Source: Escherichia coli (GTDB lineage: Bacteria; Pseudomonadota; Gammaproteobacteria; Enterobacterales; Enterobacteriaceae). From it: a DNA stretch of 64,000 bases. Numbering within the stretch: position 1 is the stretch's first letter; each line of letters starts with the position of its first letter. The translations under genes and the position numbers were made by a program. The stretch lies in assembly GCF_013122565.1 (NCBI RefSeq), contig NZ_CP053258.1; one strand, given 5' to 3'. Below are positions 1 to 56,647 of this stretch, in pieces. The notes below the pieces were generated by a model, which did not search any database, was not told the origin of the DNA, and saw nothing but the letters and a program-made list of their open reading frames with translations.

Positions 1-1202
1 CACATGGGCAAACCATCATACTCGGGATCCAGTCATACAATACCAGCGTGTTGGGTGGGATTGTGGCAGGGTTATTAGTCGCCAGCATGTATAAAAAGAT
101 CGTTAACTTACGTATTCCTGAATCATTAGGGTTTTATAGTGGCCCACGCCTGGTGCCTATCATTACACTGATTGTGATGAGTGGATTTGGTCTGATCATT
201 CCTTTTATCTGGCCGCCATTTTTCAATCTTTTCATGCTCATTGGTCACTGGATTTCAACTTCCGGTCCTGTTGGTTATTTCTTCTATGCTGTTGCCGAAC
301 GCGTGACGATACCTTTTGGCTTAAATCACTTGGTGACATCAGTTTTCCGCTTTACCCCAATCGGCGGATCGGCAGTGATTGGCGGTGAAGAGTATTACGG
401 CACCCTGAACATGTTTATGGCATACGTCAAAGAGAATGCGGTCATTCCGCTGGATTTGGCGGGGAAAATGGAGCAGGGCAAACTGATGATTCAGTATGGT
501 CTGGCTGGAGCCGCGCTGGCGATGTATCGCACTGCTCATGCTCAAAACAGAAGGGCTATCAAAGCATTGCTGATTTCCGGTGTGCTCACGGTAATTATTG
601 GCGGCGTCAGCGAGCCGATTGAATTTCTGTTCTTATTTGTCAGCCCGCTGTTGTTTGTCTTCCATGCCTTTATGAATGGATTGGCTAACATGGTTCTGCC
701 ATATATGGGCGTGAAGATGGGCTTTACTGGCGATCTGATTCAATTTATTAGCTTTGGTGTCTTACGTGGCACAAGAACGGGATGGCCATTAGCGGTATGT
801 GTTGAAGTGGCTTATTTCTTCATTTATTACTTTGTGTTCCGTTGGACCATTCTCAAATTTAACCTGATGACTGTAGGCCGTGAAGAGTCCAGTCCTGTCA
901 CGCTGAACGCTCACGAAGAAACTGCAATAGCTAACATCCCAGTTCATGATAAATCAGAGTTGCAGGCAGCGGAGCAAATGGTTAAGGCTCTGGGTGGTAA
1001 AGAAAATATTAAATCACTGGATAATTGTGTAACTCGTTTGCGTTTAACTATCGCGGATATGGGATTGATAGATGAGGCTGCAATAAAAAGGGCCGGAGGA
1101 ATTGCGGTTGTGAAACTTGATCAAAATACCTTACAAGTCATTATCGGTACAAAAGTCATCGCACTACGTCGGGATATGGATAACTACATGGGGATATGTT
1201 GA
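1..1202 (+). CDS. PTS glucose/maltose-family EIICB component (MalX/PtsG-like), N-terminally truncated by window edge
   Basis: Frame is open from position 3 with no stop before ORF 48..1202. EIIC-like motif GVSEPIEF and a C-terminal EIIB segment with the Cys motif NCVTRLR. Directly followed by a MalY-like gene, as in malXY. Confidence 0.85.
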   Translation, partial: HGQTIILGIQSYNTSVLGGIVAGLLVASMYKKIVNLRIPESLGFYSGPRLVPIITLIVMSGFGLIIPFIWPPFFNLFMLIGHWISTSGPVGYFFYAVAERVTIPFGLNHLVTSVFRFTPIGGSAVIGGEEYYGTLNMFMAYVKENAVIPLDLAGKMEQGKLMIQYGLAGAALAMYRTAHAQNRRAIKALLISGVLTVIIGGVSEPIEFLFLFVSPLLFVFHAFMNGLANMVLPYMGVKMGFTGDLIQFISFGVLRGTRTGWPLAVCVEVAYFFIYYFVFRWTILKFNLMTVGREESSPVTLNAHEETAIANIPVHDKSELQAAEQMVKALGGKENIKSLDNCVTRLRLTIADMGLIDEAAIKRAGGIAVVKLDQNTLQVIIGTKVIALRRDMDNYMGIC

Positions 1203-27011: not shown

Positions 27012-27377
27012 GTCGACAGGGAGTCAGACAACGAAGTGAACATCAGGATGATGACACTTCTGAAGGACACACCAGGATGGTGTTTCAGGGAAAGGCTTCT
27101 GGATGAAGCGAAGAGGATGACGCAGGACGCGTTAAAGGACACCTCCAGGATGGAGAATGAGAACCGGTCAGGATGATCCGGTGGGTCAGGAAGGCCAGGG
27201 ACACTTCAGGATGAAGTATCACATCGGGGTGGTGTGAGCAGGAAGCAATAGTTCAGGATGAACGATTGGCCGCAAGGCCAGAGGAAAAGTTGTCAAGGAT
27301 GAGCAGGGAGCAACAAAAGTAGCTGGAATGCTGCGAAACGAACCGGGAGCACTGTGAATACAGTGCTCCCTTTTTTT
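27012..27377 (+). ncRNA. csrB: CsrB sRNA (CsrA-sequestering)
   Basis: About 366 nt with roughly 18 GGA-containing motifs (caggatg, aaggaca, caggaag). Ends in hairpin gggagcactgtgaatacagtgctccc plus T7. Sits between syd and yqcC as in K-12. The 5' end is approximate, +/-5 nt. Confidence 0.92.
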
Positions 27378-27422
27378 ATTCCTGCTATCCTTCGCGGCAG
27401 TTTTTCTTATTGAGGTTGCTTT

Positions 27423-28551: not shown

Positions 28552-29001
28552 ATGGCGGAAATTGGTATTTTTGTCGGCACCATGTACGGAAATTCGCTGT
28601 TAGTGGCGGAAGAAGCAGAAGCAATTCTGACCGCACAGGGCCACAAAGCAACGGTATTTGAAGATCCTGAATTAAGCGACTGGCTGCCCTATCAGGATAA
28701 GTATGTTCTGGTGGTTACGTCCACGACCGGGCAGGGCGACCTTCCTGATAGCATTGTGCCGCTCTTTCAGGGAATCAAAGATAGTCTGGGCTTCCAGCCG
28801 AATCTGCGTTATGGCGTGATTGCGCTCGGCGACAGCAGTTATGTAAATTTCTGCAATGGCGGCAAACAGTTCGATGCCTTGTTGCAGGAACAGAGCGCTC
28901 AGCGGGTTGGCGAAATGCTGTTGATTGACGCCAGTGAGAACCCGGAACCGGAAACGGAATCAAATCCGTGGGTCGAACAGTGGGGCACGCTGTTGTCCTG
29001 A
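28552..29001 (+). CDS. yqcA: Flavodoxin-like protein YqcA
   Basis: 149 aa. Confidence 0.9.
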
Positions 29002-29435
29002 TATGTTCAGCGAGCGGTAAATGCCGTTTTAGCGGTGCTGAATCGAATCTTTTCAGGCAAATGCCAGTAAAAACTGCTTCATAGCGCGGATTTTTACTGG
29101 CGTTTGCCTGGAGTCAAGCGATCCATTTCATACTCTTCTTTATTTCTTCGTTTTAACCCTTCCTTTCTTGTTCTTGTTTTCATTTCCGTGAAGTGGATTC
29201 CACCGTCCAGGGCTAATGCCAAAATCGGGCCTCATTGAACGCATTAATGTTGTGTTGTTGCACGGTGAGCCGCTATGGCGCGCTTTTTATACTGCTATTG
29301 CCAGATATAAACACGCGCCGTATTCGGCGAACGACCTATAAAAACGGCAAAAAACACCCTACGTCACCTCTGATTTCCTGGCGATGTCGCAGTCCAGAGT
29401 GAGCGTGGCTAACGCGAATTTTCAGGAGTGCAACA

Positions 29436-30788
29436 ATGAGTTCTTTAAGTCAGGCTGCGAGCAGTGTGGAAAAACGCACGAATGCTCGTTACTGGATAGT
29501 GGTGATGTTGTTTATCGTCACATCCTTCAACTACGGCGACCGCGCTACGCTTTCTATTGCCGGTTCGGAAATGGCCAAAGATATCGGCCTTGATCCCGTG
29601 GGAATGGGCTATGTGTTCTCTGCCTTCTCATGGGCTTATGTTATAGGGCAGATCCCTGGTGGTTGGTTGCTGGATCGTTTTGGTTCAAAACGCGTCTACT
29701 TCTGGTCGATCTTTATCTGGTCGATGTTTACCTTGCTGCAAGGCTTCGTCGATATCTTTAGTGGATTCGGCATTATCGTTGCCCTGTTTACTCTGCGCTT
29801 CCTGGTCGGGCTTGCTGAAGCGCCATCTTTCCCCGGCAACAGTCGCATTGTTGCGGCCTGGTTTCCGGCGCAGGAAAGGGGAACGGCGGTGTCGATTTTT
29901 AACTCCGCTCAATACTTCGCAACGGTGATCTTCGCGCCGATTATGGGCTGGCTGACGCATGAAGTGGGCTGGTCACACGTCTTCTTCTTTATGGGCGGTC
30001 TGGGCATTGTCATCAGCTTTATCTGGTTGAAAGTCATCCACGAGCCAAATCAACATCCGGGGGTAAATCAGAAAGAGCTGGAGTATATCGCCGCGGGTGG
30101 CGCGCTGATCAATATGGATCAGCAAAACACCAAAGTTAAAGTGCCATTCAGCGTGAAGTGGGGACAGATCAAACAACTGCTCGGGTCACGGATGATGATC
30201 GGCGTTTATATTGGTCAGTACTGTATCAACGCCCTGACTTACTTTTTCATTACCTGGTTCCCGGTTTATCTGGTGCAGGCGCGTGGGATGTCGATTCTGA
30301 AAGCGGGCTTTGTGGCTTCCGTTCCGGCGGTTTGCGGTTTTATCGGCGGTGTGCTGGGTGGGATTATTTCCGACTGGCTGATGCGCCGCACGGGATCGCT
30401 GAACATTGCGCGTAAAACACCGATCGTAATGGGCATGTTGCTGTCGATGGTGATGGTGTTCTGCAACTACGTCAACGTTGAGTGGATGATCATCGGCTTT
30501 ATGGCGCTGGCCTTCTTCGGTAAGGGCATCGGGGCGCTGGGTTGGGCAGTAATGGCAGATACCGCGCCAAAAGAGATCAGCGGTCTTTCAGGTGGCCTGT
30601 TCAACATGTTCGGTAACATTTCTGGCATCGTCACGCCAATCGCAATTGGTTATATCGTTGGCACGACTGGCTCGTTTAATGGGGCGCTGATTTATGTTGG
30701 TGTTCATGCCTTAATCGCGGTACTGAGCTACCTGGTACTGGTGGGCGATATCAAGCGTATCGAGCTGAAACCTGTCGCGGGGCAATAA
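29436..30788 (+). CDS. gudP: Glucarate/galactarate MFS transporter GudP
   Basis: 450 aa. Confidence 0.93.
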
Positions 30789-54392: not shown

Positions 54393-56647
54393 ATATTTGC
54401 GAATATTCGGCAGAAAGCGGGTGTTCCCCGCGCCAGCGGGGATAAACCGAGGTTGCGGCACAAATTGAGGTTGTCGCAAATGTGTTCCCCGCGCCAGCGG
54501 GGATAAACCGCCGACGCAGCAGCGGCAGCAGCGGCAGCAGCGGTGTTCCCCGCGCCAGCGGGGATAAACCGTGGATCAGTGCCGCGTTCTCTCTCCGTGT
54601 AATGTGTTCCCCGCGCCAGCGGGGATAAACCGATCGAGACGGGTACGCGTAAAGCCGAGCTGGCGTGTTCCCCGCGCCAGCGGGGATAAACCGCGATCGG
54701 TTAATTCTTCTACCTGCCTTTGCAGGTGTTCCCCGCGCCAGCGGGGATAAACCGCCCGCAATGCATTCGGGCAGTTCCTTGCCGGGGTGTTCCCCGCGCC
54801 AGCGGGGATAAACCGGAGATTGAGCCAGACGCCCGCCAGGTGTTACTGTGTTCCCCGCGCCAGCGGGGATAAACCGGAAGTAACACACCCAACCCAGGTT
54901 GCGCCAGAGTGTTCCCCGCGCCAGCGGGGATAAACCGCCTGTTTGAGCAGGCGCGAATGAACCGGACCAGTGTTCCCCGCGCCAGCGGGGATAAACCGTC
55001 AGGTAAGCCAGTGTTAGGGGCAATATAGCAGTGTTCCCCGCGCCAGCGGGGATAAACCGTCATCGGCTCGTTATTTGTAGCCAGCACTACGGTGTTCCCC
55101 GCGCCAGCGGGGATAAACCGCTTTATCAGATGGTAAAGGTGAATCAATATGAGTGTTCCCCGCGCCAGCGGGGATAAACCGATACCCCAGCGTTTCGTTA
55201 TATGACGGAAGATGTGTTCCCCGCGCCAGCGGGGATAAACCGTGCAACCAGGACGGCAGGACGCATCGCCAGATGTGTTCCCCGCGCCAGCGGGGATAAA
55301 CCGCACGTTATTATCCGATATTCACCGATAAGCGTGTGTTCCCCGCGCCAGCGGGGATAAACCGTCTGGGCGTAAACAGTCGGATAAATCGCGGGTGTGT
55401 TCCCCGCGCCAGCGGGGATAAACCGGCGGCGTGTGGGGTAACAATCAGGGAGAGAAAGTGTTCCCCGCGCCAGCGGGGATAAACCGGATAAATACAGTAT
55501 ATTCCCGCGCTCTGCTGGCGTGTTCCCCGCGCCAGCGGGGATAAACCGTAGATTTTGTCCGGCTCAGGTGCGCCGATGGTGTGTTCCCCGCGCCAGCGGG
55601 GATAAACCGATCGAGTACAACAAAAAATATACTGAGTGAGTGTGTTCCCCGCGCCAGCGGGGATAAACCGCTGTTTGCTCCTGCTGCTCATTTAGTGATT
55701 TAGTGTTCCCCGCGCCAGCGGGGATAAACCGCCTGTTCTTTTTTAGTCAACTTAACCATGCTCGTGTTCCCCGCGCCAGCGGGGATAAACCGTCTTTTTC
55801 GAGACTTGCAGCAACGCTCTGAAAGTGTTCCCCGCGCCAGCGGGGATAAACCGATCGAGTAGTTTTGAGGGTTGGTGAATTCAGGGTGTTCCCCGCGCCA
55901 GCGGGGATAAACCGCTTAATAAATGGACTTAAGCGCCCAGTATTGGGTGTTCCCCGCGCCAGCGGGGATAAACCGGGGAGGGCGAGCCGCCGTAGGTGCG
56001 GTGAGGGGTGTTCCCCGCGCCAGCGGGGATAAACCGACGCAGAAACTGGTTGAAATAGTTTACGGTGAGTGTTCCCCGCGCCAGCGGGGATAAACCGGCA
56101 GTAAATTATTTGACCTCGTTGATAATCCCGTGTTCCCCGCGCCAGCGGGGATAAACCGGTGGCGGTGTGATTGTGGGACTTATTGCCATCGTGTTCCCCG
56201 CGCCAGCGGGGATAAACCGGGCCTTTTCAGCAGATTAACCGCCGCGATTGCGTGTTCCCCGCGCCAGCGGGGATAAACCGAGAGATTTATATTCTTTCAA
56301 ACCGGATTATATCGTGTTCCCCGCGCCAGCGGGGATAAACCGCTTCAAGAATTTTTAAACGCTGGCTTCAAAATGTGTTCCCCGCGCCAGCGGGGATAAA
56401 CCGTCCCACGCGTGCCAGATGGCGCGTTTGATGGCGTGTTCCCCGCGCCAGCGGGGATAAACCGATGATAACGGCAAAGGGTACGCTACGTACAACGTGT
56501 TCCCCGCGCCAGCGGGGTTAAACTGTGATCCAGTGAGTACCGATCCGGGAACAACCGGTGTTCCTCGCATCAGCGGGGATAAACCGGGTGCACTGGATGC
56601 GATGATGGATATCACTTGGCGTTCCCCCGCCCCTGCGGTAGAACTCC
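54360..56647 (+). CRISPR. Type I-E CRISPR array: 37 repeat-spacer units plus a highly degenerate terminal repeat; no leader, no adjacent cas operon
   Basis: 29-bp repeat gtgttccccgcgccagcggggataaaccg with period 61. Spacers are 32 bp except one of 33 bp (55487..55519). Repeat phase verified against the antisense artefact ORFs ([10 protein letters not shown] / VYPRWRGEH / GLSPLARGT). Degenerate repeats at 56497, 56558 and 56619 mark the leader-distal end, next to iap. Confidence 0.97.

Follow-up and report, generated by a model that had tools for sequence, protein, structure and literature searches.

A palindromic stem-loop between Escherichia coli yqcA and gudP, a candidate terminator-derived element at the 3' end of yqcA

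Between yqcA and gudP of E. coli lies a large palindrome, and it raises the question whether it acts as DNA, as an operator belonging to gudP, or as RNA, as a structure at the end of the transcript that arrives from yqcA. A sequence-only reading of this locus had left both options standing, namely an operator for a regulator such as CdaR or an RNA structural element. We describe here the geometry, conservation and surroundings of the palindrome within a window of 64,000 nucleotides, by which we mean the whole stretch of DNA that was analysed, and weigh the functions that it may have.

Geometry and setting of the palindrome

After CsrB (27021-27380; Rfam, 384 bits) the + strand carries yqcC, truC, yqcA (28552-29001), gudP (29436-30788) and gudX, in this order. 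The palindrome lies in the spacer between yqcA and gudP. Its hairpin starts 55 nt 3' of the yqcA stop codon, with the + strand as the yqcA sense strand, and is presumed to sit within the yqcA 3' untranslated region. The arms occupy 29056-29073 (GGCAAATGCCAGTAAAAA) and 29091-29108 (the reverse complement with one mismatch), which confirms the sequence and the 18-bp arms given by the sequence-only reading. The loop, put there at 18 nt, counts 17 nt (29074-29090), and the distance to gudP, given as about 330 bp, measures 328 bp from the palindrome to the ATG (29436). When up to three mismatches are allowed, the 18-mer is found in the 64 kb just as these two arms (0.05 expected). Pairing extends beyond the arms, outward between 29051-29055 and 29109-29113 and inward by a 4-bp stem, and in a fold of 29036-29128 the full stem with its flanks comprises 27 pairs (29051-29077 with 29086-29113). 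The parts of the hairpin and its immediate surroundings are as follows.

28552-29001, + strand: coding sequence of yqcA (flavodoxin), an open reading frame annotated as yqcA in E. coli records
29038-29052, + strand: conserved block CTGAATCG(A/T)(A/G)T..., from alignments, just 5' of the hairpin
29051-29055, + strand: outer extension of the 5' arm, UUUCA, from the fold, pairing with 29109-29113 mainly in Escherichia
29056-29073, + strand: 5' arm, composed of the box GGCAAATGCC (29056-29065), AGT and then A5 (29069-29073)
29074-29090, + strand: spacer of 17 nt with the inner stem CUGC/GCGG (29074-29077 / 29086-29089), an 8-nt loop and the bulged A29090
29091-29108, + strand: 3' arm, T5 (29091-29095) followed by ACTGGCGTTTGCC
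29109-29113, + strand: outer extension of the 3' arm, UGGAG, from the fold
29114-29135, + strand: nearly invariant block TCAAGCGA-N5-TTCATACTC, from alignments, abutting the 3' side of the hairpin
29120-29200, + strand: pyrimidine-rich untranslated tract with more C than G, from skew, a candidate zone of Rho loading or termination

Both strands can fold, and the + strand does so better: its 53-nt RNA reaches -32.6 kcal/mol (z = -8.5) against -26.0 kcal/mol (z = -5.9) for the - strand RNA, each compared with 200 shuffles. The single mismatch of the arms, T29062 / G29102, still pairs as a U.G wobble when the RNA is read from the + strand and becomes an unpaired C.A in RNA of the - strand. With its flanks the + strand hairpin attains -45.5 kcal/mol and, CRISPR repeats excepted, ranks first in stability among the single hairpins of the window. 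The block at 29038-29052 bears what we take to be a likeness to a Cra half-site; the yqcA-gudP locus is absent from the text of the Cra ChIP-exo paper.

Within E. coli the element is conserved. The spacer is 99.8% identical to that of K-12, in which the palindrome corresponds to NC_000913.3 2,922,428-2,922,480 on the minus strand and in whose record no feature is annotated between yqcA and gudP. Of 5426 complete E. coli genomes, 5425 contain a 93-nt segment with the palindrome at a single place each, and no annotated feature, ncRNA included, underlies it in K-12 or in the other E. coli records checked. Four sampled E. coli variants have a change at 29049 or at loop position 29085, or an insertion right after GTCAAG; the arms are untouched in all sampled variants, with the flank or the loop altered instead.

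Several familiar classes of element can be set aside. Occurrence at one place per genome in 5425 genomes rules out a REP/BIME, ERIC or MITE repeat, and a second copy was seen neither in the 64-kb window nor in 80 yqcA loci. As an intergenic palindrome after a gene, the element resembles REP/BIME and mRNA-stabilising extragenic palindromes; unlike REP/BIME, it is single-copy per E. coli genome, has no REP consensus and has an A+T-rich middle. A described RNA family is likewise ruled out by Rfam searches in E. coli and four other genera. Rfam 15 gave no credible match at the palindrome at an E-value cut-off of 10, the sole overlapping hit being a Plasmodium snoRNA model that at 25.5 bits (E = 5.9) falls short of its gathering score of 90 and that we take as chance, and at a cut-off of 1 it gave no match at the element in Citrobacter, Salmonella, Raoultella and Superficieibacter. 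Upstream of the element CsrB was the one family recovered. A literature search found no paper treating yqcA together with gudP. The element is of an ordinary kind and is unannotated in the records checked.

Conservation and covariation in related species

The comparison drew on 80 yqcA loci of GTDB representative species. The next gene on the same strand is gudP in 69 of these loci, at spacers of 278-515 bp and in one case 1962 bp. Long spacers are found in Escherichia, the C. koseri / C. amalonaticus / C. sedlakii group, Salmonella, Silvania, Superficieibacter, Phytobacter, Kosakonia and Raoultella. They read, in order, ACTGAATCG(A/T)GTTAGC, a box GGCA-NN-TGCC, GTAAAA, a variable stem-loop, TTTTTAC, GGC(A/G)TTTTCA(C/T) and the nearly invariant TCAAGCGA-N5-TTCACACTC. 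Short spacers, as in the C. freundii complex, Enterobacter, Lelliottia, Buttiauxella and others, are without this whole series. A covariance model of the core recovers the element once each in 29 of 81 sources and nowhere else. About one in three of the Enterobacteriaceae species compared therefore has a homologous hairpin at this position, enclosed by the conserved blocks that flank it in E. coli. The sequence-only reading had proposed conservation across enterobacteria as a check; the hairpin is conserved in these 29 sources with a covarying core, and the full palindrome is confined to Escherichia.

Covariation was measured on a model-fitted alignment of 28 sequences. Pairing is seen in 73.6% of the cells of the 15-bp core, which comprises GCC-N-GTAAAA and the inner stem, and 9 of its 15 pairs are changed on both sides, with double changes in several separate lineages. 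The core scores 0.204, compared with 0.115 +/- 0.016 in shuffles, none of which (0/500) reaches this value, and with at most 0.117 when the partners are slid. A plain MAFFT alignment agrees, the pair beside the GCC clamp being C-G in 9 sequences, A-U in 7 and U-A in 3. RNAalifold returned no consensus structure on that alignment because loops of different length are misaligned, and it was replaced by counts of named structures together with the covariance-model alignment. In Escherichia, G.U outnumbers A.C by 20 cells to 2, which leans to the + strand; these cells trace to few independent changes, and we give them little weight.

The outer part of the helix behaves differently from the core. 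The outer seven arm pairs of E. coli (GGCAAAT with GTTTGCC) are unpaired in most sequences from outside Escherichia, so that arms of this length and near-perfect complementarity characterise Escherichia. Minimum free energies run from -27 to -40 kcal/mol in Escherichia, from -16 to -28 kcal/mol in Citrobacter and from -11 to -17 kcal/mol in Salmonella; in Raoultella, where a small inner hairpin is accompanied by neighbouring stems, they are about -16 to -22 kcal/mol. The fastest-changing portion within Escherichia is the spacer 29074-29090.

In the aligned rows, the arm extension in Escherichia amounts to about six clustered substitutions, each improving pairing, and either selection for a longer stem or a single template switch would account for them. 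Template switching is said to produce such changes as quasi-palindrome correction mutations, a subject reportedly developed by Ripley and by the Lovett laboratory. The palindrome might accordingly have no present function and be a decaying terminator whose arms were lengthened or kept alike by template switching and not by selection. The substitutions fall within some 15 nt and each raises complementarity, as one switch would give. Moreover, in one Escherichia lineage (L002) the stem has decayed to -26.7 kcal/mol, a Citrobacter deletion has its breakpoint within the hairpin loop, and the element is missing in many genera. Against a functionless remnant count the arms, which stay constant in every sampled E. 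coli variant while loop and flanks vary, the core double changes in several separate lineages and the strong conservation of the flanking blocks, and we consider this explanation improbable.

The gudP promoter and the question of an operator

When all loci are compared, a conserved block of the gudP promoter stands out at about 29175-29300. It consists of TTTTCATTTCCGTGAAGT..CTTCCAC, a -70 box, a -41 element and a -10.

29210-29220, + strand: -70 box GGGCTAATGCC, at a fixed offset in all genera, with similar boxes in gar promoters
29251-29293, + strand: core gudP promoter, made up of the -41 element TGTGTTGTTGCACGGTGAG (29251-29269), 18 nt (29270-29287) and the -10 TATACT (29288-29293)

The -70 box reads GGGC(T)TATGCC(A)nAAA and lies 29-30 bp upstream of the -41 element, whose TGCAC core (29259-29263) is 24 nt from the gudP -10. 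The transcription start is predicted near 29300. Comparison with the gudP promoter, another check that had been proposed, consequently places the palindrome at about -244 to -192 from a start deduced from sequence, with the conserved promoter some 190 bp downstream of it. Searchable published supplements of transcriptome 3' ends and start sites yielded no yqcA or gudP entry.

The same layout, in which the TGCAC of a TGCAC(R)(R)TG motif precedes the -10 by 24 nt, recurs at gar promoters (E. coli garP, Salmonella garL, Klebsiella garP, Raoultella garL, Brenneria garD) and at the cdaR promoters of E. coli, Salmonella, Klebsiella, Dickeya and Pantoea. The -10 is TATACT at gudP and gar and TATGCT or TATTCT at cdaR. 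We take this layout to be a probable signature of CdaR-dependent promoters. In the literature searched, no published CdaR binding site was found.

Two matrices were used to compare the arms with these promoters. A -41 matrix, built from 15 elements of the gudP/gar/cdaR promoter type, gives its top score in the window to the gudP site (22.6 bits; best background 13.2). Both E. coli arms score below 2 bits, which rules out a -41 CdaR-type element in them. A -70 matrix, built from the -70 boxes of other species and four gar boxes, ranks the 5' arm fourth (11.5 bits) and the 3' arm twelfth (8.0 bits) of 128,000 positions; the true gudP box scores 17.7 bits and one unrelated site 19.7 bits. The arms resemble the promoters of the CdaR regulon (gudPXD, garPLRK, garD and cdaR, their boxes being assigned by comparison) in the GGC(A/T)-NN-TGCC core and flanks of the -70 box, and differ from them in being without the -41 element TGCAC(R)(R)TG, in lying 190-245 bp upstream of the start and in not being retained with the promoter. 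The promoter is conserved in nearly all of the 69 syntenic loci and the hairpin is present in just 29 of 81 sources, some 40 species having the whole gudP promoter and no hairpin; retention together with the promoter, as expected of an operator, is thus not what the hairpin displays. The CdaR-operator idea of the sequence-only reading is the less well supported of its two. In its favour, the arms resemble the conserved -70 box of the gudP and gar promoters. The -41 scores of the arms, the confinement of the palindrome to Escherichia and the roughly 40 species with promoter alone tell against it.

A DNA-level form of the idea is that the arms are inverted GGCA-NN-TGCC boxes of the -70 type, located some 190-245 bp ahead of the predicted gudP start and serving as distal sites for a factor that is presumably CdaR. 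The box is a palindrome in its own right, and a pair of copies flanking a hairpin would for that reason lengthen its stem automatically. In favour of such sites, the 5' box keeps GGCA and TGCC across genera while its central dinucleotide is free (AA, TT, TA, AT or CC) and uncompensated in the partner column. With the -41 matrix the 5' box reaches 12-16.7 bits in Salmonella, C. sedlakii and Raoultella against a best 64-kb background of 13.2, so that this box may have a protein-binding role, and the E. coli cdaR -41 site carries AGGCATTTGCAC, with GGCATTTGC in common with the arm. From centre to centre the boxes are separated by 43 bp, or about four helical turns, and the ranks of both arms with the -70 matrix point the same way. 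However, the -70 scores of the arms are far under that of the real box, the likeness was noticed before it was tested, and the E. coli arms fail with the -41 matrix. The 3' side is GGCATTTTCAC in most genera, which is no copy of the box, and about 40 species with a complete gudP promoter do without the region. That CdaR would bind either motif is moreover read from sequence, the literature search having found no CdaR site. We regard distal CdaR sites as unlikely, though they are the chief rival of the RNA explanation given below.

Both functions might also be combined, the RNA serving as a 3'-end hairpin of yqcA and the DNA as inverted distal CdaR boxes of the -70 type, so that CdaR binding, maybe with looping over 150-190 bp, and transcription from upstream would interact. 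This combination strikes us as rather improbable. In a variant of it, the 3' arm RNA of a read-through transcript would pair with GCCAG(U/A)(U/A)A..AAAA at the start of the gudP leader.

A related proposal is that the hairpin ends a separate small RNA starting near the ACTGAATCG block, or that it acts on the gudP leader, since the 3' arm UUUUUACUGGC is complementary to the GCCAG(U/A)(U/A)A..AAAA motif just after the gudP -10. Sequence conservation reaches about 35 nt beyond the hairpin on its 5' side, a TA-rich hexamer (TAATAA, TATAAA, TAAAGT) precedes ACTGAATCG by 2-4 nt in Citrobacter and Salmonella, and most genera have GCCAGTTA..AAAA, which resembles the arm, close to the predicted start of gudP. 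A consensus scan nonetheless reported no promoter-like site on the + strand 5' of the hairpin in E. coli, Citrobacter, Raoultella and Superficieibacter, by which an own + strand promoter of a small RNA is dismissed for these four genera. The Rfam searches in E. coli and four other genera and the annotations of K-12 and other records also reveal no RNA here, and the U-run is short and buried in the stem. We judge either role to be very unlikely.

The consensus scan did report a promoter on the - strand, with TTGACT at 29117-29112, a 16-nt spacer and AAAAAT at 29095-29090 in the 3' arm, from which an antisense RNA would run into yqcA. The invariant GTCAA, read on the - strand, supplies its -35-like TTGAC. 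The -10-like hexamer, by contrast, is AAAAAA, AAAAAC or CAAAAA in other genera or other Escherichia and is without the key T, the transcript would start inside the hairpin, and a single promoter-like match in 600 bp does not exceed what shuffles yield (0.5 +/- 0.7). Given a -10 that is not conserved, we attach next to no credence to this promoter.

The palindrome and the 3' end of yqcA transcripts

The most likely explanation, to which we would give an even chance, is that the palindrome is the DNA image of a stem-loop that forms in + strand RNA within the yqcA 3' untranslated region, yqcA being the final gene of yqcC-truC-yqcA, and that this stem-loop derives from a terminator, defines and protects the mRNA end and insulates what follows, with termination of the Rho type in the C-rich tract behind it. 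An RNA structural element, the second option of the sequence-only reading, is better supported than a CdaR operator by the position 55 nt after the stop, the covarying core and the replacements found elsewhere.

The ancestry of such an element is suggested by the relatives, in which the inner stems are 4-7 bp long and bracketed by runs of A4-5 and T4-7. These stems differ and yet pair (CCTTTC/GAAAGG, CCCTTT/AAAGGG, CCACT/AGTGG, CCCTTTC/GAAAGGG), and in layout the relatives' version looks like a small intrinsic terminator, its A-run being followed by a G+C stem of 4-7 bp and a T-run. The Citrobacter L008 copy passes a consensus terminator scan on both strands; the scan misses copies whose A and T runs pair, since this consumes the T-run. 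In E. coli, A5 closes the 5' arm and T5 opens the 3' arm, and we regard these runs as probable remains of the same layout, which is clearer in the relatives. The sequence-only reading had seen no flanking T-run and concluded that the palindrome is not a simple terminator. This is correct outside the arms and for the full stem, and it overlooks the A5 and T5 runs inside them. In Escherichia the inner stem would have shrunk to 4 bp and the flanks have become complementary, burying the A and T runs in a 27-bp stem.

The E. coli hairpin fits poorly with an intrinsic terminator. A G+C stem with a U-rich run within 0-2 nt is not what it offers, the full stem being followed by UGGAGUCA / UGGAGUCAAG and no U-run, and the consensus scan finds no intrinsic terminator on the + strand at the hairpin, nor any other terminator-like + strand site between yqcA and gudP. 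The inner stem CUGC/GCGG is the sole stem ahead of U5. Efficient intrinsic termination in E. coli is unlikely because this stem has just 4 bp and -2.8 kcal/mol. With intrinsic terminators that have an upstream A-run ('bidirectional-type') the element shares the order of A-run, stem-loop and T-run on the sense strand after a gene, and its Citrobacter homologue passes the scan on both strands; unlike them, the stem before U5 in E. coli is 4 bp, and the pairing runs 13-18 bp past the A/U runs, with covariation. Termination by this route is accordingly doubtful in E. coli, and the weakness of the relatives' core stems (-1 to -9 kcal/mol), together with the absence of a T-run in 7 of 29 copies, counts against the proposed 3'-end role too.

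A second class fits better. In E. coli, Rho-dependent transcripts have steady-state 3' ends immediately after stable stem-loops that carry no U-run, are followed by an enrichment of C over G and protect from PNPase and RNase II (Dar and Sorek 2018, PMC6061677). The yqcA stem-loop resembles this class in lying 3' of the stop codon, in having no U-run after it and in the excess of C over G that comes next. It is a stable stem (-32.6 to -45.5 kcal/mol), and the tract downstream is untranslated and rut-like, with a GC skew of -0.29 to -0.33 and an AT skew of about -0.59 (80-nt windows, 29100-29199). It differs from the class in the A/U runs inside the E. coli stem, which Rho-dependent ends are stated to lack (PMC6061677), and its 27 bp are much longer than typical stems of that class, to which it would belong by a Rho dependence deduced from sequence.

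We infer the following course of events. Polymerase leaving yqcA would transcribe the hairpin, and few complexes, if any, would halt at the internal U5, because only 4 bp of stem precede it. The remainder would enter the C-rich, G-poor untranslated tract at 29120-29200 and be released there by Rho, whereupon 3'-to-5' exonucleases would trim the RNA back to the foot of the stem. The stem would fix and protect the yqcA mRNA end in this way, and read-through would be kept from the CdaR-dependent gudP promoter about 190 bp onward.

Further support comes from what other species carry behind yqcA. In short-spacer loci a local-fold scan finds a REP element or a G+C hairpin directly 3' of the gene, the REP element at the equivalent place in the C. 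freundii complex and Enterobacter. Species without the element may thus have replaced it functionally by a G+C hairpin or a REP. The long-spacer genera other than Escherichia have a CCCTCC...GGAGGG hairpin immediately 3' of the yqcA stop. A second hairpin there is therefore not needed simply to end yqcA, which speaks against the 3'-end role in those genera. This proximal hairpin is kept in Citrobacter, Salmonella and others and lost in E. coli and its close relatives, which leaves them with the palindrome as their sole hairpin behind yqcA; consistent with this, the palindrome may have taken over the 3'-end role of yqcA or have been strengthened for it. E. albertii has neither the gud operon nor the palindrome, and its yqcA, directly followed by the G+C-rich hairpin ATGCCCTCTGATAATCAGAGGGCAT, converges on an ORF of 918 residues that we take to be barA. 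Because operon and palindrome are both absent, this loss is uninformative between the readings.

In favour of the 3'-end stem-loop, then, are its position, its stability, its conservation in E. coli, the covariation of its core, its terminator ancestry, the replacement hairpins and the fit to the class of Dar and Sorek. Against it stand, besides the points on intrinsic termination, the outer 7 bp of the arms, which most other genera leave unpaired, and the 5' box GGCA-NN-TGCC, which with its free centre looks more like a protein site than a helix.

If true, this would explain how the constitutively transcribed yqcC-truC-yqcA is insulated from the tightly inducible gudPXD downstream on the same strand, and it would add a clear and unusually long example to the U-less protective 3' hairpins. 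The importance of the palindrome is modest. In use, the signature of CdaR-regulon promoters that emerged from this comparison may be worth more. The 'PgudP' fragment of the widely copied CdaR glucarate biosensor includes the end of yqcA along with the palindrome in its full length (Rogers et al. 2015, Supplementary Table S1), and our alignments suggest that the conserved gudP promoter may need just about 29175-29300.

Promoters of the CdaR regulon

CdaR activates gudPXD, the gar operons and cdaR itself, and we find here that promoters of this regulon share a common layout, (GCA-NN-)TGCAC(R)(R)TG, in which 24 nt separate the TGCAC from the -10 hexamer downstream. At gudP, where the predicted start is at ~29300, this layout occupies the following position:

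29251-29293: gudP promoter copy of the common layout

The same arrangement is present at gudP in ~60 species. In E. coli it is also found at garP and cdaR, and Salmonella, Klebsiella, Raoultella, Brenneria, Dickeya and Pantoea have it at gar or cdaR promoters (L082, the garP-garD spacer, and L083-L091). The -10 hexamer reads TATACT at the gudP and gar promoters, and TATGCT or TATTCT at the cdaR promoters. Based on this comparison, the TGCAC(R)(R)TG element is a candidate for the CdaR site at -41; a published CdaR site was not found in the literature. The promoter fragment of the glucarate biosensor pJKR-H-cdaR (Rogers et al. 2015, PMC4551912, Supplementary Table S1) begins inside yqcA and spans the entire palindrome of the yqcA-gudP spacer (arms 29056-29073 and 29091-29108). 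Apparently no minimal promoter has been defined.

Further boxes around the gudP promoter

Every gudP promoter also carries another conserved box, GGGC(T)(T/A)ATGCC(A/C)nAAA (29208-29225, termed here the -70 box), positioned 29-30 bp upstream of its -41 element. The gar promoters carry similar boxes, for example GGGCGTATGCTCAAAA in Salmonella. The Raoultella box reads GGCATAAGCC, exactly the reverse complement, as would be expected if the site is symmetric. The top match to the -70-box matrix in the window is TTTGACGTATGCCATAAA (414-431, minus strand, 19.7 bits); it outscores the gudP box itself and may be a chance match.

Just downstream of the gudP -10 lies the motif GCCAG(T/A)(T/A)A..AAAA (29296-29315), which is kept in most genera at homologous places in L007-L081, a set that includes the yqcA loci of relatives, and which in some cases is duplicated ~20 nt further on. 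This motif is similar to the 5' arm of the hairpin (TGCCAGTAAAAA) and complementary to the 3' arm.

Conserved blocks flanking the hairpin

Directly 3' of the hairpin lies the block TCAAGCGA-N5-TTCA(C/T)A(C/T)TC (29114-29135). No other stretch in the 5' half of the spacer is as well conserved, and TCAAG, a G and an A are invariant across 29 sequences. The block is also carried by some genera with short spacers, that is, spacers that do not have the hairpin region. AGCGA-N6-TCA(C/T)A within this block could be read as a weak CRP-like site. Upstream of the hairpin, the block (A/G)CTGAATCG(A/T)GTTAGC (29038-29052) is conserved, and it resembles the Cra (FruR) half-site GCTGAATCG. The window holds 7 copies of CTGAATCG by itself, and the Cra ChIP-exo paper makes no mention of the yqcA-gudP locus.

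Rearrangements at the locus and other hairpins

In two Citrobacter species (L015, L020) a deletion has one endpoint in the loop of the hairpin homologue and the other within the 3' end of a gud dehydratase gene. Thus, the palindrome is a deletion breakpoint there. E. coli 2014C-4135 (L095) carries a foreign insert immediately after GTCAAG, equivalent to position 29119, which separates the palindrome from the gudP promoter. Members of the C. freundii complex (L013, L014, L018) have an additional 1.6-2.8 kb between yqcA and the gudP promoter, and this sequence opens with an A+T-rich stretch containing a perfect terminator-like hairpin (AACCCGAATTTAT...AAATTCGGGTTTTTT). In E. albertii (L012 3451-3550) gudPXD is absent and yqcA converges on an ORF of 918 residues that is probably barA; one G+C hairpin separates the two. 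The strongest hairpins of the window are formed by paired copies of the repeat CGGTTTATCCCCGCTGGCGCGGGGAACAC (~54480-56460), a CRISPR array whose repeat is that of the E. coli type I-E system.
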